From a phage: a stretch of DNA of 45,774 nucleotides. The notes below the pieces were generated by a model. That model worked only from the letters and a program-made list of their open reading frames with translations, was not told the DNA's origin and searched no databases. This document shows, piece by piece, positions 1 to 43,700 of the stretch. The position numbers were made by a program, and so were the translations under genes. The first letter of the stretch is position 1, and every line of letters starts with the position of its first letter. The DNA lies in the sequence record PZ349761.1; one strand, 5' to 3'.

Positions 1-480
1 CCATACAAGTTGATTTTGATTCTGGCTGGGATCGTTTTGCGCATACGCGTTATAAAAGTTATGCCGTGTGGATGAAATCACCCTCCGCAGGAATCGCGTA
101 CGTCTATAACGCAGAATTACGCAATGGTTACATAATAATATCTATATATATCAACCATTTAGTAATATTATTATTATTATTATTATATACGTGTATATAG
201 TGTAGATAGTGGATATTGGATATTGCGATAGTTTTCTATGATTTTTTCCTACACTTGTAGGAATGGTATTACATTGTAGGAATAAATAGGCATATATGGC
301 CCAATTCACCATGAAAGCTGGTGTACAAGCTGTACACGATTTTACATTGAGCTATATCTGGGGTTTGGAGCTGAAAAGCGTAAATAAATTGAATACAACC
401 ATAAATAACACTTGATAACATGTAACCTCAATGATATTATGCACCCATCTTAACGAGAGCAACCAATCAGGAGTATATCT
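1..480. repeat. AT-rich noncoding control region with (TTA)6 microsatellite (167-187), iteron-like short repeats (190-235), CCTACA-ct-TGTAGG palindrome (250-263) and ACGCGT-core palindromes (45-50, 95-100)
   Basis: No credible ORF; about 90 bp (115-200) is a direct repeat of 27207-27295. Confidence 0.6.
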
Positions 481-1002
481 ATGTCAAATCGCATTCAACC
501 AGTAAGCCTTGGTGATGTTATCCGCTACATGGCTAAGCAGGCACTTAAGGCCGACAACAGGACTTTTCATGTTCCAATAAATCTTATAGCTCGCCAGGTT
601 TACGGGCTAACGTCTGATGATATGGGCCGAATCAGCGCTGAAGATCTCGAGGCTGGCGGCAAATACAGTTTGGCAAAGTTGAAGGCTTCATATGTCTCTA
701 ACACAGTTGCCAGGATGTCAGAGATTCAGGAGGCGAACGTTCGGGCTAAGCTGTCAATCAAGGACGGCGACTTCGGTGATGATGTTGACGTTCGATGCGC
801 ATACATCACATTGGTTGATGGGGCAATACAGACAGGAAAGAGAGTTAAGGCCAATAATCAGGTTGCTGAGAATGCGGTGAGCGACTTCAAGGATAGAATC
901 CTTAAGCTAATGCCATCAGTTACTGATCTTGAAGGTGATGAGATTACAGGAGCCATCAAGGCAATCAAGATGTACCAGGAAATGATTAAGGAGGCAAAAT
1001 AA
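481..1002 (+). CDS. hypothetical protein (173 aa)
   Basis: Complete ORF directly after the control region; stop overlaps next start; no recognisable motif. Confidence 0.5.
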   Translation: MSNRIQPVSLGDVIRYMAKQALKADNRTFHVPINLIARQVYGLTSDDMGRISAEDLEAGGKYSLAKLKASYVSNTVARMSEIQEANVRAKLSIKDGDFGDDVDVRCAYITLVDGAIQTGKRVKANNQVAENAVSDFKDRILKLMPSVTDLEGDEITGAIKAIKMYQEMIKEAK

Positions 1003-1532
1003 TGGGGATGTTTGATTTTAACGAAGATAAGCTGACTAATGATGAGATTATGAAGATTTCCATGCGGGATGGACTTCCTCCGCTACGGGTTGCGATCAAT
1101 GCTAATGGATATCGGCAAACTCAACGCCTCTGGGGCAAGCCTGACGCGTCAGAGGTATACATAGATGAAGCGAAGGGCGTTCTGATTAAGCTGATCAGGA
1201 AAATGGCAATGAACGGAAATGGAGTATTGGGGGTGAGGTCTTTATACGAAACCGCACGAAAAGTTAAGCCATTTGAGGGTCGTAATGGAATCATGGTGCG
1301 CATTAAGGACGAGCTCATCCCAGCTCTAGAGGAAATGAATCTAGTTTGCCTCATTGGCGATAAAATTTATGTCCACCCGGCAATCATTGATGAGTATTGG
1401 CAGCCTAACTTCAAAACTTACGAAGGTGAACATGCTAGTAGACTACCATACCACTTGCGGTACAGCGAGGAAGAGGTTGAGGTGGCAATTGAGTTCTATA
1501 GGAAAGCTAAATCACTACTGAATGGTAAATAG
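1002..1532 (+). CDS. truncated paralogue of the 527-aa P-loop protein (N- and C-terminal segments only, ATPase core missing)
   Basis: N-terminus MFDFNEDKL..LPPLRVAINANGYRQ and C-terminal block G..RSLYE.ARKVKPFE..IKD..CLIGDK.Y..P match 42117-43700 (-) but the central ~370 aa with the Walker A motif are absent. Confidence 0.6.
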   Translation: MGMFDFNEDKLTNDEIMKISMRDGLPPLRVAINANGYRQTQRLWGKPDASEVYIDEAKGVLIKLIRKMAMNGNGVLGVRSLYETARKVKPFEGRNGIMVRIKDELIPALEEMNLVCLIGDKIYVHPAIIDEYWQPNFKTYEGEHASRLPYHLRYSEEEVEVAIEFYRKAKSLLNGK

Positions 1533-1546
1533 CACTTTTTGCCTAA
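1529..1546 (+). promoter_or_regulatory. conserved palindromic box (ATAGCACtttttGCCTAA) of promoter cassette
   Basis: TAG stop of 1002-1532 lies inside box; CATAAT at 1567-1572; CATCGAAACGAG at 1578-1589; ATG 1611. Confidence 0.6.
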
Positions 1547-1610
1547 CGCGGTAATGCCATGGATGGCATAATAGCCTCATCGAAACGAGATACGTAAATG
1601 AGGATTTAAA

Positions 1611-1829
1611 ATGAGCAAGGCAATCACACTGCAATGCCTTAAGACAAATAACCCAGAGTTCTTAAAAGGTCACAAATATGTAGCAACTCTGGTAGACGGT
1701 AAAACGTGGGCAGTTAAGGGGGGATTCCAGGATTACAAATTCCCACTCGAGCACATTCCTGGTGGAAATCTTGGTTTTGTTAGTAGCTGCCGCTCGGTTA
1801 AGTTCGTGTTTGAAGTGGTAATGAAATAG
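1611..1829 (+). CDS. hypothetical small protein (72 aa)
   Basis: ORF preceded by cassette promoter and RBS; stop TAG inside next box. Confidence 0.55.
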   Translation: MSKAITLQCLKTNNPEFLKGHKYVATLVDGKTWAVKGGFQDYKFPLEHIPGGNLGFVSSCRSVKFVFEVVMK

Positions 1830-1843
1830 CACGAATTGCTAAA
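1826..1843 (+). promoter_or_regulatory. conserved palindromic box ATAGCACgaattGCTAAA
   Basis: Overlaps TAG stop of 1611-1829; 22-nt spacer, TACGAT, CATCGACAACAACGAGG leader. Confidence 0.6.
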
Positions 1844-1893
1844 CAATGGATCGGGTAGTCGGCTACGATTACCCCATCGACAACAACGAGGAA

Positions 1894-2133
1894 ATGAAGA
1901 TGGAAAACAATTACGAAATGAAAACAGATCGCAAGCTCTTTAAAGACATGGAAGGCGACGACTGCTGGATTGACACGATGACAAATTTCGGAGATGTCAC
2001 TGTCGAGATTGTAATTGACGATGACTCTGGAACCTTTCCCGTGCAAGATGCGGATACCGTACGCGCAATGGGTGAGCACTTAATCAAGATGGCTGACTAC
2101 ATGGAGAGCCAGGGGAAATTAGCTGTAAATTAA
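1894..2133 (+). CDS. hypothetical small protein (MKMEN family, copy 1)
   Basis: Start moved from 1846 to in-frame ATG 1894 because 1846-1893 is occupied by the promoter cassette; N-terminus MKMEN and upstream ACAACGAGGAAATGAAGATGGAAAA duplicated at 2150-2180. Confidence 0.5.
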   Translation: MKMENNYEMKTDRKLFKDMEGDDCWIDTMTNFGDVTVEIVIDDDSGTFPVQDADTVRAMGEHLIKMADYMESQGKLAVN

Positions 2134-2165
2134 TCAAGATTCGCATTATCAATAACAACGAGGAA

Positions 2166-2375
2166 ATGAAGATGGAAAATATTCGTATTGAAGATGTTCA
2201 CTTTGACCAAGCTGAGGTCGGAATCACAAAAAGCGCTCGCGGAGACGTTGTATATCTGGACTTTAATCCGGATGACTACGGGGACGGCCAGATGCTGATG
2301 CACTACAGTCCTGATAAGGCGCGCAAATTGGCGGCAGCATTAATCCTGGCGGCGGACGAGGTGGAGAAGCAATGA
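2166..2375 (+). CDS. hypothetical small protein (MKMEN family, copy 2)
   Basis: Same leader and N-terminus as 1894 gene; tandem paralogue. Confidence 0.5.
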   Translation: MKMENIRIEDVHFDQAEVGITKSARGDVVYLDFNPDDYGDGQMLMHYSPDKARKLAAALILAADEVEKQ

Positions 2376-2632
2376 AACGTTTAATGAAATGCATGACCAT
2401 TATTGCGGCAATGATTGCTCTTACTGGTTGCGAGAAGGCACCAGAGGTTCAGATTCAGTCAGGTGAATTCAATGTGGAGCGTCTATTCACAGTGGATGGA
2501 TGTACCGCCTACAGATTCCGAGATAGCGATAGAGCCATCTACTACACAAATTGCAATGGCAGTACGCAGAGTGAGTACAGGCACGGCAGGGCCATGAAAC
2601 AAGAAACAGTTCAGACAGATCGCACGAATTGA
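2372..2632 (+). CDS. small lipoprotein (signal peptide with lipobox LTGC); possible superinfection-exclusion type protein
   Basis: N-terminus MKRLMKCMTIIAAMIALTGC is a classic lipoprotein signal; 4-nt overlap with upstream gene. Confidence 0.5.
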   Translation: MKRLMKCMTIIAAMIALTGCEKAPEVQIQSGEFNVERLFTVDGCTAYRFRDSDRAIYYTNCNGSTQSEYRHGRAMKQETVQTDRTN

Positions 2633-2815
2633 TAAAGGGGGATTCATCCTGACTGGTATAATCGCCAGCATCAACCACATGAATGGAAGTTAAGTGACGA
2701 TATACGAACATAAATTCAGTAGCAGGGGTATTGATATGCTCCTGCACTATGTAGACGAAAAATACGCAAAGCTCATGCTTAAGACGCATGGCGGCACAAT
2801 AACGAGGGTTGAGAT

Positions 2816-3145
2816 ATGAGTAAGTACGATCGTGAAATTATTGGAATTGATGGCACGGTAACAACAGTAGATGTTTATCGTGTTCTTGATGCGTTTGGCG
2901 TATCTGACCCGGCAACTCAGCACGCAATCAAGAAGCTATTGTGTCTTGGGCTTCGTGGCCACAAGGATTACCTTACCGACCTCAACGACTCGATTGATTC
3001 ATTACAGAAAGCTAAGGAGCTTTACGGGCAGAAGATGATTCATGAATCCGATAAAATCACTGATTCAATTTTAAATCCACCAAAAGAAGCGAGATTTAGT
3101 ACTGCTAATGGTTCAGAATTCACTTTCGGAAAGGTTAGAGTCTAA
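2816..3145 (+). CDS. hypothetical protein (109 aa)
   Basis: ORF with RBS GAGATATGAG context; stop TAA immediately followed by box. Confidence 0.55.
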   Translation: MSKYDREIIGIDGTVTTVDVYRVLDAFGVSDPATQHAIKKLLCLGLRGHKDYLTDLNDSIDSLQKAKELYGQKMIHESDKITDSILNPPKEARFSTANGSEFTFGKVRV

Positions 3146-3163
3146 ATAGCACGAATTGCTAAA
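3146..3163 (+). promoter_or_regulatory. conserved palindromic box ATAGCACgaattGCTAAA
   Basis: Directly after TAA stop; followed by terminator-like hairpin CCCGC-tcct-GCGGG-TTTT (3164-3180), TATAGT 3184-3189, leader CACCAATCGAGAGG. Confidence 0.6.
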
Positions 3164-3307
3164 CCCGCTCCTGCGGGTTTTGTTATAGTTAGTTCACACC
3201 AATCGAGAGGAAATGGAAATGAAGCAATACCCATCTAGCAATCACCATAACGGTCACATCATGCAGTTCTATCGCCACAATCTGAAGACGAAAGGAGTAT
3301 TTGGAAA

Positions 3308-3499
3308 ATGATTACAATTAACCTTTCAGAAGAAATGGCTGCTGACCTTATTGATTCACTAAGCCTGGTTAAAATTCGATACGGAACTTACCACATGAGC
3401 GAATCAGTAAAGGAAGTGGTAAAGCAAGTTAAGCAGCAGGTCGGAGCTGCCAAAATTGAATTGCAGAACACCCCGTGCGATTTTAATAAAGGTGAATAA
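3308..3499 (+). CDS. hypothetical small protein (MITINLS family, copy 1)
   Basis: ORF; N-terminus MITINLSEE shared with next gene. Confidence 0.5.
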
Positions 3500-3500
3500 G

Positions 3501-3728
3501 ATGATTACGATTAACCTGTCAGACAAGCAAGCGGCAGAACTCAAGTCCATGATGAACTCTTTCATGCCAACGCGCTGCGACGGTCAGCGTAATGTGGTAG
3601 ATGAGGTTAGAGACCAAATCAACAATCAGCAATTTGACGTATCAGACTTCGAGTCGTCACGGCAGTACGAAGCATTAAGCGTCAACGCTGCATACCTTAC
3701 TAACTGGGATAAGGCGACAAAGAAATGA
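3501..3728 (+). CDS. hypothetical small protein (MITINLS family, copy 2)
   Basis: In-frame ATG at 3501 right after stop of copy 1; N-terminus MITINLSDKQ. Confidence 0.5.
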   Translation: MITINLSDKQAAELKSMMNSFMPTRCDGQRNVVDEVRDQINNQQFDVSDFESSRQYEALSVNAAYLTNWDKATKK

Positions 3729-3898
3729 AGCTTGACAAAGAGGTATTAAGAGATAATTTCATAGCTCACGGAATTGATGATGAAGAGTTCCTAAATTGGT
3801 TCCTTGATAAAAAAGCCGATGAGCTTGGTTTGTACTGGTTCTCAACTGGCGCGACAATGTACGAGGCATGGATGGCAGCAATGGAGACTAAGAAATGA
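3725..3898 (+). CDS. hypothetical small protein (57 aa)
   Basis: Short ORF below track cutoff, read by eye; start overlaps upstream stop (ATGA); fits same-strand gene packing better than antisense ORF 3766-4035. Confidence 0.3.
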   Translation: MKLDKEVLRDNFIAHGIDDEEFLNWFLDKKADELGLYWFSTGATMYEAWMAAMETKK

Positions 3899-4032
3899 TT
3901 TACGTTCATACGTATTACACTGGCAAGTTTAACAGCGTTAAGCATGTACGTGTTCACGATACCTACGAGAGCGCAAAGGCTCAATGGTTGGTTCTTGGTG
4001 GTGATATTAATTATTATAAACTTGTTGAATAG
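3895..4032 (+). CDS. hypothetical small protein (45 aa)
   Basis: Short ORF with ATGA overlap; ends in TAG inside box at 4029. Confidence 0.3.
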   Translation: MIYVHTYYTGKFNSVKHVRVHDTYESAKAQWLVLGGDINYYKLVE

Positions 4033-4046
4033 CACTAATTGCTAAA
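4029..4046 (+). promoter_or_regulatory. conserved palindromic box ATAGCACtaattGCTAAA
   Basis: 22-nt spacer with hairpin GGGGTAA..TTACCCC, TATAGT 4067-4072, CATCGAAACGA 4078-4088, ATG 4103. Confidence 0.6.
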
Positions 4047-4102
4047 ACAGTACCGGGGTAATTTGTTATAGTTACCCCATCGAAACGAACGAGGAAGAAG
4101 AA

Positions 4103-4315
4103 ATGAAAATTGAAATTATCTACGTAGACTACAAGACAGAGACTGACATTCTCACACTGCGTGACTGTGGTTTCCAGGTTGGAGATGTAGTTGAAGTATC
4201 TGGCCTATACAAAGGAGGGGATCTTTCAATTCAAGCTATCCGTGAAACCGAGCTTGTGAATGTCGGGGATGAGATCAGTATTAGCGAGCATGAATACAAG
4301 GTGGTGGAAGAATGA
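4103..4315 (+). CDS. hypothetical small protein (70 aa)
   Basis: ORF with cassette promoter and RBS GAGGAAG. Confidence 0.5.
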   Translation: MKIEIIYVDYKTETDILTLRDCGFQVGDVVEVSGLYKGGDLSIQAIRETELVNVGDEISISEHEYKVVEE

Positions 4316-4491
4316 GATTTCAACAATCAGAGCCTAAACTCCAGATTAACCACTTCGACGGCTACGCAACATTCATCATTGCCCAGGCGTGCGGTATGCG
4401 AGACGAACCCCAGGTTCACACAATCCATATGACAGAAGAGCAGGCTCGAGAGTTGGCTTATGAAATTCTTGAGCAATTGAACCTAATTTAA
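4312..4491 (+). CDS. hypothetical small protein (59 aa)
   Basis: ATGA overlap with upstream gene; read by eye. Confidence 0.35.
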   Translation: MRFQQSEPKLQINHFDGYATFIIAQACGMRDEPQVHTIHMTEEQARELAYEILEQLNLI

Positions 4492-4542
4492 CGTGCCTAA
4501 AACGCATTCTAACGAACTATAATTTAAGTAAGGTGATTCATC

Positions 4543-4674
4543 ATGGTAGCGAAAGAAAGCCCCGCAGAGTGGTGTAAGCGAATGCAAGACGAAGCTAAAA
4601 CGGGCGAAGAGGCGATGGCTTACTACGAGCTTGCAAAAATTTGGATGGAACGGGAGAAAAAGAGAAATGACTAA
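4543..4674 (+). CDS. hypothetical small protein (43 aa)
   Basis: Short ORF with RBS AAGGTG upstream; read by eye. Confidence 0.3.
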   Translation: MVAKESPAEWCKRMQDEAKTGEEAMAYYELAKIWMEREKKRND

Positions 4675-4819
4675 CACTTGTGTATTTTTTTATGATGGTG
4701 AATTTATTGATGACTTAATCTACTTCAATGAAAAGTATGGCGACACATTCGAATGCGACGGTGACAATCTCGAGGTTCTAGCGACATTCAATAGGGGTGG
4801 CAAAAATGAGTTTCACTGA
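4667..4819 (+). CDS. hypothetical small protein (50 aa)
   Basis: In-frame ATG within track ORF 4631-4819, overlapping upstream stop. Confidence 0.4.
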   Translation: MTNTCVFFYDGEFIDDLIYFNEKYGDTFECDGDNLEVLATFNRGGKNEFH

Positions 4820-4949
4820 ATATGTTATCGCATGTGAACGACTGGTCTTTGATATGAAGACTTTTCACTGGTTCATAATTAAGGATTTAATAAAGCCTTA
4901 TAAGCAAGGCGTTACGCCAGAGACGTTTGTTGAGTCATTCTACAAATAG
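4806..4949 (+). CDS. hypothetical small protein (47 aa)
   Basis: Short ORF ending in TAG inside box at 4946. Confidence 0.3.
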   Translation: MSFTEYVIACERLVFDMKTFHWFIIKDLIKPYKQGVTPETFVESFYK

Positions 4950-4963
4950 CACTAAAAGCTAAA
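4946..4963 (+). promoter_or_regulatory. conserved box variant ATAGCACtaaaaGCTAAA
   Basis: 22-nt spacer, TATAAT 4984-4989, leader CTATCAATACAACGAGAGAG, ATG 5023. Confidence 0.55.
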
Positions 4964-5022
4964 CGCAGTCGCCACGGATGGCATATAATTACCCTATCAA
5001 TACAACGAGAGAGATAAAGCAA

Positions 5023-5220
5023 ATGAACAAAAAATCAAATAAAGTTACCAAAGTTAAATCACATATCGCAGAAAATAATTATGAGGAGCCTTTGGATTTA
5101 GGTTTCAATTCAAGAAAAGTGGTTGTTAACGGAATCATGGGTTTTCATTCTCGCTGCGTTATAGCTAAACCAGTTATTGGCTTTGAGTCTCGATGCGTCT
5201 TTGTTGGTGGGGTCTTATAA
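5023..5220 (+). CDS. hypothetical small protein (65 aa)
   Basis: In-frame ATG downstream of cassette inside track ORF 4978-5220. Confidence 0.45.
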   Translation: MNKKSNKVTKVKSHIAENNYEEPLDLGFNSRKVVVNGIMGFHSRCVIAKPVIGFESRCVFVGGVL

Positions 5221-5459
5221 TGTTCGGATTATCAGAAGCACACTTTAACGCAGTTAAACGTCAGGCTGCAAAGTTGAACGAAGAGTACAGCAAGTTATCG
5301 CCAAAGCAGCGTAAGGACGATAAGCAGGTCGCGGCATTGATTTCAAAGATGTGGGAGCCAGTTTTCACAATCATCAGTCGAGATCGCTTTGTTTGGACTA
5401 GCGGTTATCTTAAGGGTCGCGTTGGTCACGACGAGAATGGGAATAGCCTTTATGAGTGA
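5220..5459 (+). CDS. hypothetical protein (about 80 aa)
   Basis: ATG overlapping upstream TAA (TAATG) inside track ORF 5193-5459. Confidence 0.45.
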   Translation: MFGLSEAHFNAVKRQAAKLNEEYSKLSPKQRKDDKQVAALISKMWEPVFTIISRDRFVWTSGYLKGRVGHDENGNSLYE

Positions 5460-5516
5460 GTTAACAATCTGGTTTATCGCAGGTATGATTACTTGGGCTT
5501 ACTTTATGGTGGCAGC

Positions 5517-5741
5517 ATGAGAACATTGAGGCAGATTTTACACGGCTGCAAGAAGCATCACTACGTTTACTATCGTGATATTAAATGGTTCGAGGAGGCT
5601 CATTGCAAAGGTGGTTACAAGACGAAGTTGATATGTAAGAAATGCAGGCACGTGACCAACAGCAAGGTTGATATGATGATTTGCCGTAGCACTCTTGATT
5701 ATATGCGTTACGGGCTCATAAAACCGCCAGTTAAGCCTTAA
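5517..5741 (+). CDS. small Cys/His-rich protein, possible zinc-ribbon
   Basis: CKKHH..HCKGG..CKKCRH..C pattern; in-frame ATG inside track ORF 5493-5741. Confidence 0.4.
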   Translation: MRTLRQILHGCKKHHYVYYRDIKWFEEAHCKGGYKTKLICKKCRHVTNSKVDMMICRSTLDYMRYGLIKPPVKP

Positions 5742-5950
5742 TTGTTAAAAATAGCTTGCACCACTGACCGGAATTATCTAATATTAACCACGTAGACAAA
5801 CGAGCCATCCAAGATGGAACGGCGCACGGAGTGCAACTACTAAGTCCGTTGCTCATTAAGTAGCGCATGCGGCATTAAGACCTAGCGCAAATAGGCAGAT
5901 TAACCGGCTGTATCAGGCAGCCCCGGAGCCGTAACCGGGACTCATTCAAG

Positions 5951-6028
5951 GCTCCGCTAGCTCAATTGGACAGAAGCAACGACCTTCTAAGTCGCAGGTT
6001 ACTGGTTCGAATCCAGTGCGGAGCGCCA
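5951..6028 (+). tRNA. tRNA-Arg (anticodon UCU), CCA encoded
   Basis: Cloverleaf read by eye: 7-bp acceptor GCTCCGC/GCGGAGC, T8, anticodon loop CTTCTAA with TCT at 5986-5988, T-arm ACTGG-TTCGAAT-CCAGT, discriminator G, CCA 6026-6028. Confidence 0.8.
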
Positions 6029-6055
6029 AACTTAACCAATAATCCTGGGGGATTT

Positions 6056-6268
6056 ATGAAGAAAGTAACAATAATTGTAAAGGATATTGAAAGCGGCACA
6101 AGTCAGAAGTTCAATGCCACACTTGATCTAGAGCATAAATGCTTAAAAGGTGTAATTGGCGGTGTGTCTGTTAGCGCAGATATTAATGCATATCTTGAAA
6201 TGGACCGTAAGGTATCAGAATTTAGCAAGCAGAAAGCGAAAATTAAAAATGCAATTATGGGACGTTAA
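6056..6268 (+). CDS. hypothetical small protein (70 aa)
   Basis: In-frame ATG with RBS GGGGGA just after tRNA, inside track ORF 5966-6268. Confidence 0.45.
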   Translation: MKKVTIIVKDIESGTSQKFNATLDLEHKCLKGVIGGVSVSADINAYLEMDRKVSEFSKQKAKIKNAIMGR

Positions 6269-6437
6269 ACTTTCTATCAGATTAATGGGCCGCTCGTGCA
6301 AGAGCTGCACCCAAGATTATGTAGCGTCAGTTGCCGCAATCAGCGCTGAGGATGCGGTAGCGAAAGTAAAGGAGATGTCAGGCGCTGACCCTGACACTCA
6401 CAAATTCCTGGTAGCTTACGTTCGTGAGCGAAAGTAA
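6249..6437 (+). CDS. hypothetical small protein (62 aa)
   Basis: In-frame ATG inside track ORF 6156-6437. Confidence 0.4.
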   Translation: MQLWDVKLSIRLMGRSCKSCTQDYVASVAAISAEDAVAKVKEMSGADPDTHKFLVAYVRERK

Positions 6438-6481
6438 AAAGTGTTATACCCTCGTTAAGTTTCGTTTCTCTCGTTGTTTTT

Positions 6482-6505
6482 AGCCCTCGCTTGAGGGCTT
6501 TTTTT
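6482..6505 (+). terminator. rho-independent terminator
   Basis: AGCCCTC-gctt-GAGGGCT hairpin followed by T6. Confidence 0.7.
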
Positions 6506-6548
6506 CGTCTGTAATATGGTATAATCTGACATCAACAAAGGAGGATTT

Positions 6549-7055
6549 ATGAGCAAAGCGGCATTAAAGATGGGTGAGGGAAATTTCAAGGCGCTCTACA
6601 ACAAGAAGTATGGCGATATTGCTATGGTGGCAATTAACCGCAAGTACACGCCTGAGGAAGTTTTTGATTTCGCTGTTCGATACTTCTCATGGGCAGAGAG
6701 TGAGGCAATCAAAGCTACTGAGACAGCAGCATTCCAGGGCGTGGTTAGCGAAAGTCTGGTGCACAAGCCTCGAGTGTTCACATTAACTGGCCTGGCGCTC
6801 TTCATGGGTGTTAACATCAATAGATTCGCTAAATGGCGCACTGAGGCTGGGTACTCTGATGTGATGGAATTCATTGATAACGTAATCTACGAGCAGAAGT
6901 ATCAGCTTGGCGTTGCAGGTATTATCAACTCCACAATCGTTGGTAAAGAGCTAGGCATTGATAAGCCGCAGGAGATTAAGATTAGCAACAACTCCACAGC
7001 TAACGACGTTGATAGCATGAAGGAAGCTCTGGAATCTGTGATTAGTAAGCTATAA
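6549..7055 (+). CDS. putative terminase small subunit
   Basis: 168-aa gene immediately upstream of large terminase, first gene of late block after terminator and extended -10 TGgTATAAT; assignment by position and size only. Confidence 0.5.
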   Translation: MSKAALKMGEGNFKALYNKKYGDIAMVAINRKYTPEEVFDFAVRYFSWAESEAIKATETAAFQGVVSESLVHKPRVFTLTGLALFMGVNINRFAKWRTEAGYSDVMEFIDNVIYEQKYQLGVAGIINSTIVGKELGIDKPQEIKISNNSTANDVDSMKEALESVISKL

Positions 7056-7164
7056 CAATAAGAGGGTATAACATGGTTATTTGCACATTTCTTGGTTGGT
7101 GGATGATGACCAGGAATCTTAACGCAGGACTGCTATATATAGTTATTAATATGGGGGTTTCTCA

Positions 7165-8730
7165 ATGTCTTTAGTGTGGGAAGAAATGACCATTCAGGAA
7201 AAGATGGCTGTCAAAGCGATATCAGAGCATAGCTTCGAGGGTTTTCTGCGCTGCTGGTTCCAAATAACACAAGGTGAGCGATACATCCCTAACTGGCATC
7301 ACAAGTACTTGTGCAGAATCATTGACGAGATTATCGCAGGGGAACGCAAGGACACCATCATTAACATAGCTCCGGGCAGCGGAAAGACGGAAATCACATC
7401 AATTCACTTCCCTGTATACTCTATGTTGAAGCTGAAGAAGGTTCGAAACCTTAATATCTCTTTCGCCGACTCAAACGTAAAGCGCAACTCAAAACGAGTG
7501 CGTGACTTAATATCATCAAAGGAGTTCCAGGAACTCTGGCCTTGCAAGTTCGGGACAAATAAGGATGACGAGATTCAGATCGTTGACGACAGCGGAAAGG
7601 TTAGATTCGAGTCCATATCAGCATCAAAAGGAGGCAGGATTACTGGCACGCGTGGTGGTTATATCACCGACACATACAGCGGCGCGGTAATGCTGGATGA
7701 CTTCGATAAACCAGACGAGATGTTTTCATCCGTATACAGGGCAAAGAGTCACACGCTGCTTGGCAATACCATTCGCTCACGCCGCGCTAGCTCGGTAAAA
7801 GGGAAGGCAACTCCAATTATCCAGATTCAGCAGCGACTTCACGTCAATGACTCAACGTGGTTCATGCTTAGCGGTGGTATGGGCATTGATTTTGATTTGG
7901 TGAAGATACCAGCACTGGTTACTGAAGATTACGTTGATACATTACCTGACTGGATTAAACAGCAATTCATTGATGACGTATTATCAAGCGAAAATATCGA
8001 GCGTGACGGAGTGAAGTATTACAGCTACTTCCCAGGGAAAGAGTCCGTGCATGACCTGGTTGCGATGTGGGATAGTGACCCGTACACATTCCTTAGCCAG
8101 TATCAACAAGAACCTGTAGCATTGGGCGGAAATCTTATTAACGTAGACTGGTTCCAGCGTCTTAGTGATACATTCAGGCCTCCAGTTAAGTATGATTACA
8201 GATTCATCACATGCGATACCGCGATGACTACAAAGAGTTATAGTGACTTCTCTGTACTTCAGTTGTGGGGATACAAGGATGCTAAGATTTACCTGATAGA
8301 CCAGCTCAGAGGAAAATGGGAAGCGCCGGAGTTGGAGGCTGAACTACTGGACTTCGAGAAGAAATCAAGGGCAACCAGTCAATCAGATGGCATACTCCGA
8401 AAGATCATCATCGAGAAGAAAGCCTCTGGTATCGGCCTGATTCAATCGGCAGGTAGAGTTATGCGAACACCGATAGAGCCATACGTTCCGGATAACGACA
8501 AGCTGACTCGCGTAATGAGCGCATTGCCACAGATTAAGGCTGGTAATGTCGTTCTTCCAGAGTCTGCGCCGTGGCTAAACGGATTGCTTACTGAGGTTGC
8601 TGCTTTTACGGCAGATGATAGCCACAAACACGACGACCAGATTGACTGTCTAACAATGGCAGTAAACCTTGTACTTAACATTGCGGACGACCCAAAAGCG
8701 CGACTAATGCGCATAGCGGGAATTAAATAG
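7165..8730 (+). CDS. terminase large subunit
   Basis: 521 aa; P-loop-like APGSGKTE near N-terminus, acidic nuclease-type C-terminal half; canonical position before portal. Confidence 0.85.
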   Translation: MSLVWEEMTIQEKMAVKAISEHSFEGFLRCWFQITQGERYIPNWHHKYLCRIIDEIIAGERKDTIINIAPGSGKTEITSIHFPVYSMLKLKKVRNLNISFADSNVKRNSKRVRDLISSKEFQELWPCKFGTNKDDEIQIVDDSGKVRFESISASKGGRITGTRGGYITDTYSGAVMLDDFDKPDEMFSSVYRAKSHTLLGNTIRSRRASSVKGKATPIIQIQQRLHVNDSTWFMLSGGMGIDFDLVKIPALVTEDYVDTLPDWIKQQFIDDVLSSENIERDGVKYYSYFPGKESVHDLVAMWDSDPYTFLSQYQQEPVALGGNLINVDWFQRLSDTFRPPVKYDYRFITCDTAMTTKSYSDFSVLQLWGYKDAKIYLIDQLRGKWEAPELEAELLDFEKKSRATSQSDGILRKIIIEKKASGIGLIQSAGRVMRTPIEPYVPDNDKLTRVMSALPQIKAGNVVLPESAPWLNGLLTEVAAFTADDSHKHDDQIDCLTMAVNLVLNIADDPKARLMRIAGIK

Positions 8731-33222: not shown

Positions 33223-33240
33223 ATAGCACGAATTGCTAAA
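33223..33240 (+). promoter_or_regulatory. conserved palindromic box ATAGCACgaattGCTAAA with no plus-strand gene downstream
   Basis: Lies about 24 nt upstream of the minus-strand tail fibre ATG and lacks the downstream -10 and leader. Confidence 0.5.
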
Positions 33241-34268: not shown

Positions 34269-34748
34269 TCAAATCGTGCTGTTTTTCTCTTTCTTCTTCT
34301 GGTTCTCTAATTTAATTTTGCGCCAGGAGCGACATTCAGGCTTTGTGGCTAGTTCAGCCTCAGTAACTACGCGCAGCATGTGACGTTTTTTGCAACGAAG
34401 CGTCAATGGCTTTCCGTTACCGTCGAATTGCAGGTCTGGCCTGCAGAATGTAGCGCGAAAACCTTCTCCATTTCGCTTATAGTAGTTGTGCGAAAGTTGA
34501 GCTCCACGTGCAGAAATCATACCACGCTTAAACCATTCCTCTACAGCCTGTGGCGTTACCTTTAACTGCTTCGCTATATTCGCCTTTGTGCCGAAGAAAT
34601 CAAGAACCATCTCCAGCCGTGCTCGTAAGCCAGCCCTTACTTCATCTTTTAATACGTAGTAGCCTGAAGGTCGTTTACGTTGTTTTTTGTCTTTGGTGCG
34701 GACGGTTCCGTTATTACCGTTAATTGTTCGTTTGTCGACTGAACTCAT
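34269..34748 (-). CDS. putative HTH DNA-binding protein (transcriptional regulator candidate)
   Basis: Basic N-terminus, helix-turn-helix-like IAKQLKVTPQAVEEWFKRG; first gene of minus operon at a divergent control region. Confidence 0.5.
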   Translation of the reverse strand: MSSVDKRTINGNNGTVRTKDKKQRKRPSGYYVLKDEVRAGLRARLEMVLDFFGTKANIAKQLKVTPQAVEEWFKRGMISARGAQLSHNYYKRNGEGFRATFCRPDLQFDGNGKPLTLRCKKRHMLRVVTEAELATKPECRSWRKIKLENQKKKEKNSTI

Positions 34749-42116: not shown

Positions 42117-43700
42117 TCACCCCAGCAATCTCGGATTAATGTAAACTTTATCACCAATCAGGCACGTATAGTTTTTCTCATCAAGCATTGGCAGTAAGTG
42201 ATCTTTAATCTTCGTCATCACTCCAGCCTGAGCCTCGAACGGCTTAACCTTTCGCGCCGCTTCATACAGTGAACGAATACCAACTACGCCTTTACCGTTC
42301 TTACCTTGCTTGATTAGTATATCAATCAACTTGTTCATCTCGGCATTGTCTCCAGCGTGACCGGCGGCGTTAGCGGATGACAGGTAAGTCTTGCTAAGTT
42401 CCTGGAAGATAATGACGGCTTCTTGCATCGTATCTAACTCAATTTCTCTCGACTTCTGCGGACTACCACCGTTAGGGTTGAACCAGTTACGCACAGTGTG
42501 AAGTACCGCTGCAATCCTTATTGCCTGTTTATCAAACTTACCCAAAGCGCCGCGCAACATTGTGTGTGAATACTTTCCTCCGTCAGCAAGGTGAGGCTCC
42601 ATCTCCTGGCGTGCTCGGTTGAGATATTTCATTGCAGAGTTACTCACTGTCAGCTTAACATCTTGCTCATTCATTATTTCGTGAACCAAGCGGAAGTAGT
42701 CAGCCTTCAGGCCACCATCAATTGGCTCGTATGTTGAATCTCCATTCTCATCAACAAAAACACGCTCACCCAGGAATGACTTCTCGCGTACAAGCAGAAA
42801 ACGTTCCGACACGCCGATTCCACGAGCGCCCGCGTTCATGATCGCATTTATTGTTTCATCCTGCGCAATTACCGAGATGCAACCCATAGCAACGAAGCTC
42901 ATGTTGTTCTCTGCGTTTGCACGCGCGATAGATACGTTACCCGCATCCCATGCCTTCAGTACAAGCTCGCTGTTCGTTTTCTTTGAGCCATCACCATAGG
43001 TCATGCCCAGAAGTGAGTTCACGCTCGTTGCCTCGTCAGAGATAACAGCGAAGTTTCCCTGGCGATTGTTGATTCTGGCTAGACCTTCAGGTGTTGTATC
43101 GGACACGGGGAATACTATGTCACAAAGTTTCTCTAGCTTTTCCTCAAGTTCCTCTTTCTCCTCAAAAAGTGAGGCCATCTCTGATGGTGACTTTTCCTGC
43201 TTCATCTCCTTGGATAATGCAGATAGTTTAGCCATTATTTTCTTGCGCTCGCGCTTTCGCACTTCATTAAGCCGCTCAGTCTCAGCGATCATTGGAGCAA
43301 TAGAAAGTGAGTTGATTGCTGATTTACCAGTCGATGGCGGCTGGCTTGTTACGACGTACAGCGAGGTTGGTTGCTGAGTCCCGTGATATTCAACAGTAAA
43401 TCGTCCAAGCATGGCGGCAGAAATACACCCCAGAAAGTGCATGTATGCGGATGACTCTGGAAACTGGACCGAACGAGCAATATTGGCTGAAAGTTTGCCA
43501 ACAACATCAATATCATTACCGAGTGAGATTACTGGATACTTGTCATTTGCCGCATCAATCTCGACAGGAGCTTTCCAGAATGATTGAGACTGACGATAGC
43601 CATTAGCATTAATAGCCACTCGCAGGGGTGGGAGGTTGTCTGCGGCAGCAATTGCCATAACCTGTTCAACAGATAGTTTATCTTCGTTGAAATCAAACAT
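42117..43700 (-). CDS. P-loop NTPase of unknown function (full-length paralogue of 1002-1532)
   Basis: Walker A-like PPSTGKS; N- and C-terminal segments shared with the 176-aa protein at 1002-1532. Confidence 0.6.
   Translation of the reverse strand: MFDFNEDKLSVEQVMAIAAADNLPPLRVAINANGYRQSQSFWKAPVEIDAANDKYPVISLGNDIDVVGKLSANIARSVQFPESSAYMHFLGCISAAMLGRFTVEYHGTQQPTSLYVVTSQPPSTGKSAINSLSIAPMIAETERLNEVRKRERKKIMAKLSALSKEMKQEKSPSEMASLFEEKEELEEKLEKLCDIVFPVSDTTPEGLARINNRQGNFAVISDEATSVNSLLGMTYGDGSKKTNSELVLKAWDAGNVSIARANAENNMSFVAMGCISVIAQDETINAIMNAGARGIGVSERFLLVREKSFLGERVFVDENGDSTYEPIDGGLKADYFRLVHEIMNEQDVKLTVSNSAMKYLNRARQEMEPHLADGGKYSHTMLRGALGKFDKQAIRIAAVLHTVRNWFNPNGGSPQKSREIELDTMQEAVIIFQELSKTYLSSANAAGHAGDNAEMNKLIDILIKQGKNGKGVVGIRSLYEAARKVKPFEAQAGVMTKIKDHLLPMLDEKNYTCLIGDKVYINPRLLG

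Follow-up and report, generated by a model that had tools for sequence, protein, structure and literature searches.

Small accessory genes in the left arm of a T1-like coliphage as a probable product of module exchange at repeated cassettes and gene junctions

In T4-like phages, promoter-early stem-loops (PeSLs) are described as mobile regulatory cassettes mediating modular shuffling (PMC2839356, PMC4122927), while the phage accessory regions of Silas et al. (bioRxiv 10.1101/2023.04.06.535777) are variable hotspots of small genes lying between conserved anchors and holding a known counter-defence gene. In Drexlerviridae, the left arm (ST55-ST77 in T1, genes 3-19 in SU57) is bounded on one side by the genome end or a divergent intergenic region and on the other by the gene of the small terminase (TerS), and the T1 record carries 23 annotated, mostly small genes followed by a terminator and then by TerS. 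A 21-base repeat with the consensus aaATAGCACnnnTTGnTAAAA, intergenic, co-oriented with transcription and located about 76 nt upstream of the start codon, was described for phage TLS, and its function is listed by the authors as an open question (PMC11447400). Here, we describe an array of small genes at positions 1611-5741 of one stretch of phage DNA, 45,774 nucleotides long (sequence record PZ349761.1, hereafter the window), in which one gene encodes a homologue of the T4 peptide Stp and several are preceded by cassettes built around this 21-nt repeat. We regard the stretch as likely to be the accessory, or “hyperplastic”, left arm of a T1-like phage, remodelled by the exchange of modules at the cassettes and gene junctions.

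The window is the complete genome of a T1-like coliphage (Drexlerviridae, Braunvirinae), and these 45.8 kb behave as a whole genome, with the terminases, tRNA-Arg and genes of replication and recombination, including primase and helicase, all present. Megablast of positions 1400-6000 matched 112 phage records, nearly all of E. coli siphophages, the best being Veterinaerplatzvirus T145P1 (93.5% identity, 79% coverage) and the second vB_EcoD_SU57 (93.8% identity, 65% coverage), both from the Drexlerviridae subfamily Braunvirinae. As in T1 and SU57, the genes lie on the same strand between the genome end and TerS, with a terminator just before TerS and with the 21-nt repeat, and the families of DUF7180 (domain of unknown function 7180), g20 and g24 are shared with T1 in the same order. 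Gene content is largely distinct, however, with only three or four shared families: the T1 arm contains pnk and an HNH gene, whereas the window phage has stp, a homologue of gp55.3 and a lipoprotein gene instead. With the accessory regions of Silas et al., the locus shares variable content between conserved flanks in otherwise near-identical genomes, and Stp; it differs in that only one member has a known function and in that its genes are known from sequence rather than from screens. Such a region is nothing unusual in a T1-like phage. Its type, the 21-nt repeat and Stp are already known; the modest novelty lies in finding Stp and a gp55.3 homologue in a phage of this kind, in the fixed geometry of the repeat and in the association between repeat and mosaic joints.

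A preliminary description of the sequence had proposed about 20 tiny genes here, and 20 close-packed plus-strand genes of 22-109 aa were indeed placed. They are listed below with their families, their occurrence in ten close relatives and, for some, the ratio of nonsynonymous to synonymous substitution rates (dN/dS, Nei-Gojobori count against close relatives).

1611-1829, plus strand: g03, 72 aa; phrog_27558; only in SU57 and T145P1; dN/dS 0.05
1894-2133, plus strand: g04, 79 aa, acidic; phrog_16871
2166-2375, plus strand: g05, 69 aa, acidic; predicted four beta strands and C-terminal helix
2372-2632, plus strand: g06, 86 aa, predicted lipoprotein; phrog_6360; dN/dS 0.55, the highest of the array
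2694-2819, plus strand: g07, 41 aa, GTG start; phrog_12148 (E=3e-30); in 9 of 10 relatives
2816-3145, plus strand: g08, 109 aa; similarity of residues 1-82 to the C-terminal region of longer phage proteins
3213-3311, plus strand: g09, stp homologue, 32 aa (30 aa from ATG 3219); PF08133, phrog_6763
3308-3499, plus strand: g10, 63 aa, DUF7180 paralogue with a different C-terminus; PF23805; at 97% only in JeanPiccard
3501-3728, plus strand: g11, 75 aa, full-length DUF7180; PF23805; conserved as far as T1 (ST60)
3725-3898, plus strand: g12, 57 aa, homologue of T-even gp55.3 (tblastn)
3895-4032, plus strand: g13, 45 aa; phrog_3955; in 9 of 10 relatives
4103-4315, plus strand: g14, 70 aa; phrog_5684; in 1 of 10 close relatives
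4312-4491, plus strand: g15, 59 aa; phrog_7411; in 9 of 10 relatives; dN/dS 0.07
4543-4674, plus strand: g16, 43 aa; phrog_1312
4667-4819, plus strand: g17, 50 aa, without family; tblastn matches in 5 of 10 relatives; dN/dS 0.15
4806-4949, plus strand: g18, 47 aa; phrog_22596; in 9 of 10 relatives
5023-5220, plus strand: g19, 65 aa, without family; in 3 of 10 relatives
5220-5459, plus strand: g20, 79 aa, apparent core gene of the arm; phrog_303; in 10 of 10 relatives; homologue of T1 ST59
5452-5520, plus strand: g21, 22-aa hydrophobic peptide MSELTIWFIAGMITWAYFMVAA; kept in 10 of 10 relatives; dN/dS 0.24
5517-5741, plus strand: g22, 74 aa, Cys/His-rich (5 Cys, 5 His)

PHROG families were matched by 16 of these genes; g17, g19, g21 and g22 have none, yet tblastn finds their homologues in close relatives, and homologues are found in total for 20 of 20. 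Together with dN/dS in the called frame, which was measurable for 18 genes and ranges from 0.03 to 0.55, this indicates that the open reading frames (ORFs) are real genes rather than chance ones. It is hardly credible, then, that most of them are fortuitous ORFs in what is really an extended structured leader or a regulatory spacer, although such a possibility is suggested by the very small size of the ORFs, by the four lacking a PHROG family and by the published annotations of close relatives, which disagree on the ORFs to be called. Apart from homology and selection, it is contradicted by the end-to-end arrangement of ORFs on one strand, with Shine-Dalgarno sequences and ATGA/TAATG overlaps, and by the Rfam scan of positions 1-7200, where tRNA was the sole match. 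Starts located on the preceding stop or a few bases from it (12 of the 20 genes; ATGA, TAATG, overlaps of 8-14 nt) indicate translational coupling. The locus had also been called fast-evolving, which is appropriate for its gene content and not for its sequence: dN/dS is 0.03-0.17 in 10 genes and 0.21-0.55 in the other 8 measured, the reference values being 0.05 for TerS and 0.07 for the large terminase (TerL), and as a group the array genes are not unusually fast in sequence evolution.

Content, by contrast, varies among near-identical relatives, and the stretch is a hypervariable accessory locus. Comparison of presence and absence over ten relatives with TerS 93-99% identical gave from 4 to 18 of the 20 genes shared by tblastn (2 of the 18 shared with the closest-content relative matched only partly); the number of genes that these relatives have in the slot is 4-20, and one relative has no more than about four to six of the array genes. 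Over the window and these ten genomes, 35 gene families, as counted from a rough ATG-only ORF layout, occupy the slot, 14 of them in a single genome only. The best match of successive genes jumps between at least 7 genomes. Among 42 distinct homology endpoints, defined as BLASTN segment ends in ten related and non-independent genomes, 15 fall in cassettes constituting 12.8% of the sequence (binomial p=1.3e-4), and most of the others are found at stop/start gene junctions. Whole-gene modules would accordingly be swapped, inserted and lost between related phages, with joints at cassettes and at overlapping stop/start junctions.

The core of the 21-nt repeat, by which the cassettes are recognized, is an 18-base motif, ATAGCACNNNTTGCTAAA, with 20 matches genome-wide vs 2.2 expected; 18 of the 20 show cassette geometry, and some precede portal and tail genes. 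Alignment of these 18 copies gives aaATAGCAC-N3-TTG(C/A/T)TA, then a spacer and a TAnnnT hexamer, in most cases TATAGT or TATAAT, then TAcCCCATCGAAACGA and a Shine-Dalgarno sequence; the start codon lies 67-89 nt from the repeat. A cassette combines the 21-nt repeat with a hairpin of variable sequence, a -10 hexamer and the leader CATCGAAACGA. Often, the TAG within ATAGCAC also serves as the stop codon of the gene before it. Between TTGCTA and the -10 hexamer there are 22 nt in 15 of the 18 copies and 21-23 nt in the remaining ones, and copies in T1 have the same geometry. The array contains six full cassettes, with motifs at 1529, 1826, 2619, 3146, 4029 and 4946, and a degenerate site at about 4493-4523:

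1527-1610, plus strand: cassette 1; ATAGCAC 1529-1535, TTGCCT 1539-1544, 22-nt hairpin spacer, -10 CATAAT 1567-1572, leader CATCGAAACGA
1824-1893, plus strand: cassette 2; ATAGCAC 1826-1832, TTGCTA 1836-1841, -10 TACGAT 1864-1869, leader CCCCATCGACAACAACGAGG
2617-2693, plus strand: cassette 3, degenerate in its repeat; ATCGCAC 2619-2625, TTGATA 2629-2634, TGG-TATAAT with hexamer 2657-2662
3144-3212, plus strand: cassette 4; ATAGCAC 3146-3152, TTGCTA 3156-3161, TGT-TATAGT with hexamer 3184-3189
4027-4102, plus strand: cassette 5; ATAGCAC 4029-4035, TTGCTA 4039-4044, TGT-TATAGT with hexamer 4067-4072, leader CCCCATCGAAACGAACGAGG
4493-4523, plus strand: putative degenerate cassette-like promoter; GTGCCT, 19 nt, TATAAT 4518-4523, without ATAGCAC
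4944-5022, plus strand: cassette 6; ATAGCAC 4946-4952, AAGCTA 4956-4961, TATAAT 4984-4989

The statement that most genes have their own cassette promoter did not hold, since a full cassette is found before only six of them (1611, 1894, 2694, 3213, 4103 and 5023) and a seventh, 4543, follows the degenerate one; the array is made of about seven co-directional units for 20 genes, not of a promoter per gene. In cassette 1, ATAGCAC contains the TAG stop codon of the preceding gene, and homology to 6 relatives ends at 1535-1541. The repeat of cassette 3 is within the end of g06, and cassette 4, with its terminator-like hairpin 3161-3180, is retained alone in five relatives. Hairpin arms GGGGTAA/TTACCCC surround the hexamer of cassette 5, where breakpoints cluster at 4023-4029 and 4086-4120, while those of cassette 6 are at 4944, 5012 and 5025. 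In four relatives, the end of g02 is fused directly to cassette 2, which would there drive the g05 homologue, so that g03 and g04 look like extra modules bounded by repeats (21-mer at 1529/1826 and 26-mer at 1882/2154). Outside the arm, a perfect copy of the 21-nt repeat at 33223-33240, having neither -10 hexamer nor downstream gene, is situated at the convergent end of an 870-aa minus-strand gene and adjoins a terminator-like hairpin; it may be an orphan or remnant cassette.

Diversification of the locus had been ascribed to duplication, with two tandem paralogue pairs, 1894/2166 and 3308/3501, as its visible traces. As the main driver, tandem duplication followed by rapid divergence, with these pairs as recent examples, seems unlikely to us: no recent duplicates are seen, BLASTP of the array genes against all genome ORFs giving none at E<0.01. 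Only the second pair proved to be one of paralogues. Genes 3308 and 3501 (g10 and g11), which do share MITINLS, align with 30% identity (BLASTP E=3e-5) and both match PF23805 (DUF7180, cutoff 27; 32.1 bits for g10, over its N-terminal 45 residues only, and 80 bits for g11), and as true tandem homologues they speak in favour of duplication. Nevertheless, both copies are present in JeanPiccard at 97-99%, while other relatives have one copy, and 30% identity between copies each so well conserved implies either an old pair or two imports. Gene g11 has 354 homologues, residing on T1-like-sized contigs where these are long enough to judge. In the DUF7180 family, the N-terminal seven and C-terminal 40 residues are almost invariant and residues ~13-35 are hypervariable, and a recurrent homology breakpoint lies at 3615 within g11; this pattern suggests intragenic mosaicism or diversifying selection. 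The structure model of DUF7180 was unusable (predicted local distance difference test, pLDDT, 62; predicted template modelling score, pTM, 0.28).

For the pair 1894/2166 (g04 and g05), the common leader and MKMEN are present as had been noticed, and they constitute an exact 26-nt direct repeat (1882-1907 = 2154-2179) with a start-to-start spacing of 272 nt:

1882-1907, plus strand: copy 1 of the 26-nt direct repeat (leader and ATGAAGATGGAAAA), flanking the g04 module together with copy 2
2154-2179, plus strand: copy 2, a partial cassette before g05, without the 21-nt repeat

Beyond these 26 nt, the remainder of the two genes is unalignable (BLASTP E=1.6). Comparison of the two families by hhalign at 98% probability was an artefact of MDRVVSYDYPIDNNEEMKMEN cassette read-through members included in both alignments; after trimming, similarity is confined to a 27-column C-terminal helix (E=0.0086, probability 4.7%), and hidden Markov model matches appear at E ~0.003-0.006 in a 56-sequence set. 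This weak helix similarity is in line with duplication, as are two members of the g05 superfamily located near each other in T145P1 (38% identity, E=8e-10), and g04 and g05 may share a distant ancestor. On the other side, the shared 5′ end is missing from the g04 orthologue of T145P1, which begins with MITDRK, has neither leader nor MKMEN, loses homology at breakpoint 1918 and follows a 75-aa g05 relative (E=8e-10) without similarity to g04. In other phages, a single member of the g04 or of the g05 family is found behind the same cassette, and the general trend is that within-genome copies of the g04, g05 and DUF7180 families are not each other's closest relatives. The simplest reading is that the 5′ end of g04 (MKMENNYEMK) is a recombinant add-on and that the identity of MKMEN marks a recombination joint. 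Duplication plays a minor part, and the exchange of modules remains the preferred source of variation.

The following signals and genes frame the array and are needed to consider its transcription:

412-440, plus strand: canonical sigma-70-like promoter TTGATA-17-TATTAT with TG, top-scoring site in the promoter scan (10 of 12 matches)
5756-5784, plus strand: promoter-like site with canonical spacing, TTGCAC-17-TAATAT; kept in relatives; precedes the tRNA leader
5951-6028, plus strand: tRNA-Arg(TCT), conserved right-hand anchor of the variable region
6482-6506, plus strand: strong intrinsic-terminator-like hairpin with T-run, closing the arm just ahead of the TerS promoter
6549 and 7165: TerS and TerL

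Transcription of the arm would begin at the promoter 412-440, which lies at the start of the rightward arm, before g01 and g02, and end at 6482-6506 ahead of the packaging genes; the terminator scan gave the latter as the sole strong terminator, and the T1 record has an annotated terminator at the equivalent position. Between them, transcription would probably be re-fed at each intergenic cassette, possibly in an activator-dependent manner, and genes within a unit would be translationally coupled. With its own canonical promoter and the terminator at 6482, the arm is presumed to be expressed before the packaging genes; no literature on the timing of transcription or the transcriptome of T1-like phages was found.

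The repeat of the cassettes corresponds, by its sequence, to the published 21-nt Drexlerviridae repeat of TLS, with which it shares motif, orientation, the distance of ~76 nt to the start codon and A/T/G sub-types of the central triplet, and it is also present in T1. Beyond the TLS description, the copies studied here display the fixed 22-nt distance to the TAnnnT hexamer (in the window phage and in T1), a hairpin in the spacer, a leader that is conserved, a stop codon contained in ATAGCAC and a link to mosaic breakpoints. TTGCTA is not a canonical -35 element, being separated from the hexamer by 22 nt instead of 16-18. The sigma-54 consensus is TGGCAC-N5-TTGC, and such a promoter was rejected by eye as well, given that ATAGCAC-N3-TTGC is two bases shorter in spacing and has AG in place of GG. 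Within the 21-mer there is an inverted repeat, TAGCA-N5-TGCTA, with its centre near -41; in four copies carrying TTGATA, a G-C pair is broken without compensation, which may count against the 21-mer as a strict RNA hairpin or perfect palindrome. Hairpins of the spacer are variable in sequence and often flank the -10 hexamer; their mean minimum free energy is -8.5 vs -4.2 kcal/mol for random genomic 36-mers (p=5e-5). One of them scores as a terminator, and several such hairpins are annotated as terminators in the T1 record. A conserved 159-aa “transcriptional regulator” is encoded at 34272-34748 on the minus strand (phrog_2856, E=1e-82; homologue of T1 ST23), with a sub-threshold Cro-like helix-turn-helix match (27.4 bits vs cutoff 30.2), and this protein is a candidate binder or activator at TAGCA-N5-TGCTA.

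Likeness to PeSLs includes the combination of a repeated promoter-like sequence with a stem-loop between small non-essential genes (18 copies here), enrichment in the hypervariable region (6 of the 18 cassettes within 1527-5022, i.e., ~8% of the genome) and indel or replacement joints between close relatives that fall in cassettes. The phage family and the sequence are different, however; upstream, a conserved 21-mer 22 nt from -10 stands in place of a consensus -35 and AT-rich UP region; the hairpin is located inside or around the -10 region; and cassettes also occur in structural and replication modules. A consensus sigma-70 promoter (-35/-10 at 16-18 nt), typical for PeSLs, is absent from the cassettes as they are read in the DNA. 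By analogy, the cassette works like a PeSL at the level of recombination and is not the same element. We tentatively consider it possible that cassettes are the siphovirus counterpart of PeSLs, that is, activator-read non-canonical promoters doubling as portable recombination sites for single-gene modules, among them T-even counter-defence genes such as stp and 55.3. If true, this would answer the open question on the function of the 21-base repeat raised in the TLS paper; in any case, this question becomes more accessible through the geometry of the cassettes and their connection with mosaic joints.

The gene with an assigned function is g09. The 32-aa ORF at 3213-3311, noted before as His-rich, was identified as a homologue of T4 Stp, a predicted type Ic restriction inhibitor. 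It matches PF08133 (Nuclease_act) with 52.3 bits at a cutoff of 25, twice the threshold, by residues 9-32 on model positions 2-25/26, and phrog_6763 with E=2e-14; tblastn gave 569 phage records, mostly of Tequatrovirus, with 79% identity over residues 9-32, some annotated as “stp” or “type IC restriction inhibitor”. In RB3 Stp, 19 of 24 aligned residues are identical, including the core and spread across the whole peptide, and 72% nucleotide identity to RB3 stp implies that the transfer was not recent. The dN/dS of g09 is 0.03. The residues preceding the aligned part are MEMKQYPS, although ATG 3219 has better Shine-Dalgarno spacing than the upstream start and is used in relatives (30 aa). Stp is a ~26-aa peptide whose loss-of-function mutations in T4 map to the conserved N-proximal region (PMC3014915), and g09, with 30-32 aa, fits this tiny stand-alone form and likewise resides among other small accessory genes; it differs in 4-6 extra N-terminal residues, in being carried by a siphovirus and in its neighbours, which are not ndd and ac of T4.

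In T4, Stp inhibits EcoprrI and EcoR124I and activates PrrC, which the phage counters with Pnk and Rnl1 (PMC3014915). By extension from this work, the g09 peptide would bind host type Ic restriction complexes, block restriction and unmask PrrC. The window has no T1-type Pnk homologue, including among the larger ORFs scanned, no tRNA repair genes were found in it, and no unassigned ORF in it is long enough for an Rnl1-type ligase; Stp would therefore probably trigger PrrC suicide in prr+ hosts. It should be helpful on EcoR124I-type hosts and self-defeating on prr+ hosts, predicting evasion of type Ic restriction together with abortive infection on prr+ strains, a testable determinant of host range. 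Classically a T4 curiosity, Stp is scattered over three Drexlerviridae lineages (Braunvirinae, Rogunavirinae and Nouzillyvirus) and a Kagunavirus, mostly unannotated: the match is a “hypothetical protein” in Sf12 and 2725-N35, and no coding sequence is annotated in K1ind3 and XT34. It follows a different cassette in Sf12 and in XT34, in the latter after a g05-family gene. In Kagunavirus K1ind3, a Guernseyvirinae phage, the unannotated stp (L092 560-775) sits behind a terminator and a canonical TTGACT-17-TATATT promoter, and its leader TACTCCATCGACAACGAG is closely like the Drexlerviridae cassette leader, sharing CCATCGACAACGA.

The suggestion of an anti-defence locus is justified as far as at least one counter-defence gene, stp, is present, and for the locus as a whole it extrapolates from one gene of 20. 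The other products (lipoprotein, Cys/His protein, 22-aa membrane peptide, DUF7180 pair, gp55.3 homologue and PC4/Pur-like acidic domain) are best regarded as candidate factors of host or defence interaction and make a short list for counter-defence screens in a family which is widely used (BASEL Bas01-13) and poorly annotated. A coherent host-takeover module, responsible for host shut-off or DNA degradation as in T1, rather than a collection of unrelated counter-defence genes, is an improbable alternative. T1-like phages do degrade host DNA by early genes that are unknown (PMC11447400), and DUF7180, g20 and g24, which T1 also has, seem to form the conserved core of the arm and could have core functions. 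But most genes are dispensable across close relatives, down to the genome retaining so few of them, the sole function-assigned gene is a counter-defence one, and Pfam and PDB sequence searches detected no nuclease, kinase or other enzymatic domains among the array proteins (with g08, g11, g20 and g22, the PDB searches gave nothing meaningful).

Considerations that weigh against an accessory arm shaped by exchange at cassettes should be put together here. The endpoint statistic carries the dependence between its genomes, and breakpoints at gene boundaries are also expected from selection acting on random illegitimate recombination. The spacing between TTGCTA and -10 is too large for a standard sigma-70 -35 element, and promoter activity of the cassettes is inferred, as is “early” timing, which a sequence does not show. 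Cassettes of this type are also found ahead of portal and tail genes and so are no marker of an early class. Finally, g09 differs from T-even Stp by five substitutions and an N-terminal extension, its activity being only predicted, and only one gene in 20 has a function by homology, from which “anti-defence” is extended to the rest.

Several other members of the array have features of their own. The product of g05 carries the widespread motif Y(T/S)PxxARxLAAALIxAAxEAE; its modelled fold is like that of Pur-alpha/PC4, but the protein is acidic, with a net charge of -6, a search gave no annotated viral match, and the fold was not taken to assign a function. In g06, described earlier as a lipoprotein, a signal peptide and lipobox A-L-T-G-C were confirmed and are kept in 6 of 6 homologues (MKRLMKCMTIIAAMIALTG|C with Glu at +2; judged by eye against the rule [LVI][ASTVI][GAS]C after a basic and hydrophobic signal peptide). 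It matches only phrog_6360, 902, 1754 and 8372, all of “unknown function”, and sub-threshold DUF4884, and PHROG and Pfam searches gave no sequence relationship to the superinfection-exclusion lipoproteins (Llp of T5; Cor of T1, phi80 and N15); cor of T1 sits elsewhere, adjoining tail genes. Gene g08 matches positions 151-228 of 235 in phrog_2452 and 172-243 of 246 in phrog_17613, its tail beyond ~3048 being common to T145P1 only. In JeanPiccard, its slot (L084 3856-4473) is occupied by a 205-aa “putative P-loop NTPase” without detectable g08 similarity, which was dismissed as a g08 relative for want of both a Pfam match and a tblastn link; the slot appears to hold alternative, unrelated genes. 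Gene g12 has ~45% identity to 55.3 of T2 and matches 434 records, mostly T4-like, while tblastn found no homologue in any of the 10 close relatives. The family of g14 is widespread among T1-like phages of Klebsiella and E. coli. The 22-aa g21 overlaps both neighbours, is uncalled in the annotated records examined and received no separate mention in the preliminary description. Cys/His-rich g22, correctly seen there, has no PHROG family and no PDB match, but all five homologues compared have C11, H14, H15, C40, C43, H45 and C56 unchanged, suggesting a candidate zinc site C11...C40-x2-C43...C56.

Two observations concern the flanks of the array. Between the promoter-like site 5756-5784 and tRNA-Arg, there is a conserved non-coding stretch of ~160 nt (5790-5950) with two hairpins showing compensatory double changes (3 pairs and 2 pairs) across nine relatives; it has no Rfam match, its folding z-score is -0.69 and a further sequence search gave nothing new; a structured leader of the tRNA, or a small RNA, may be encoded here. 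On the other flank, g02 (1002-1532, 176 aa) matches residues 1-51 (62%) and 458-526 (57%) of a 527-aa helicase-like protein of the opposite arm (42117-43700, minus strand) and looks like an internally deleted paralogue of this helicase-like gene.

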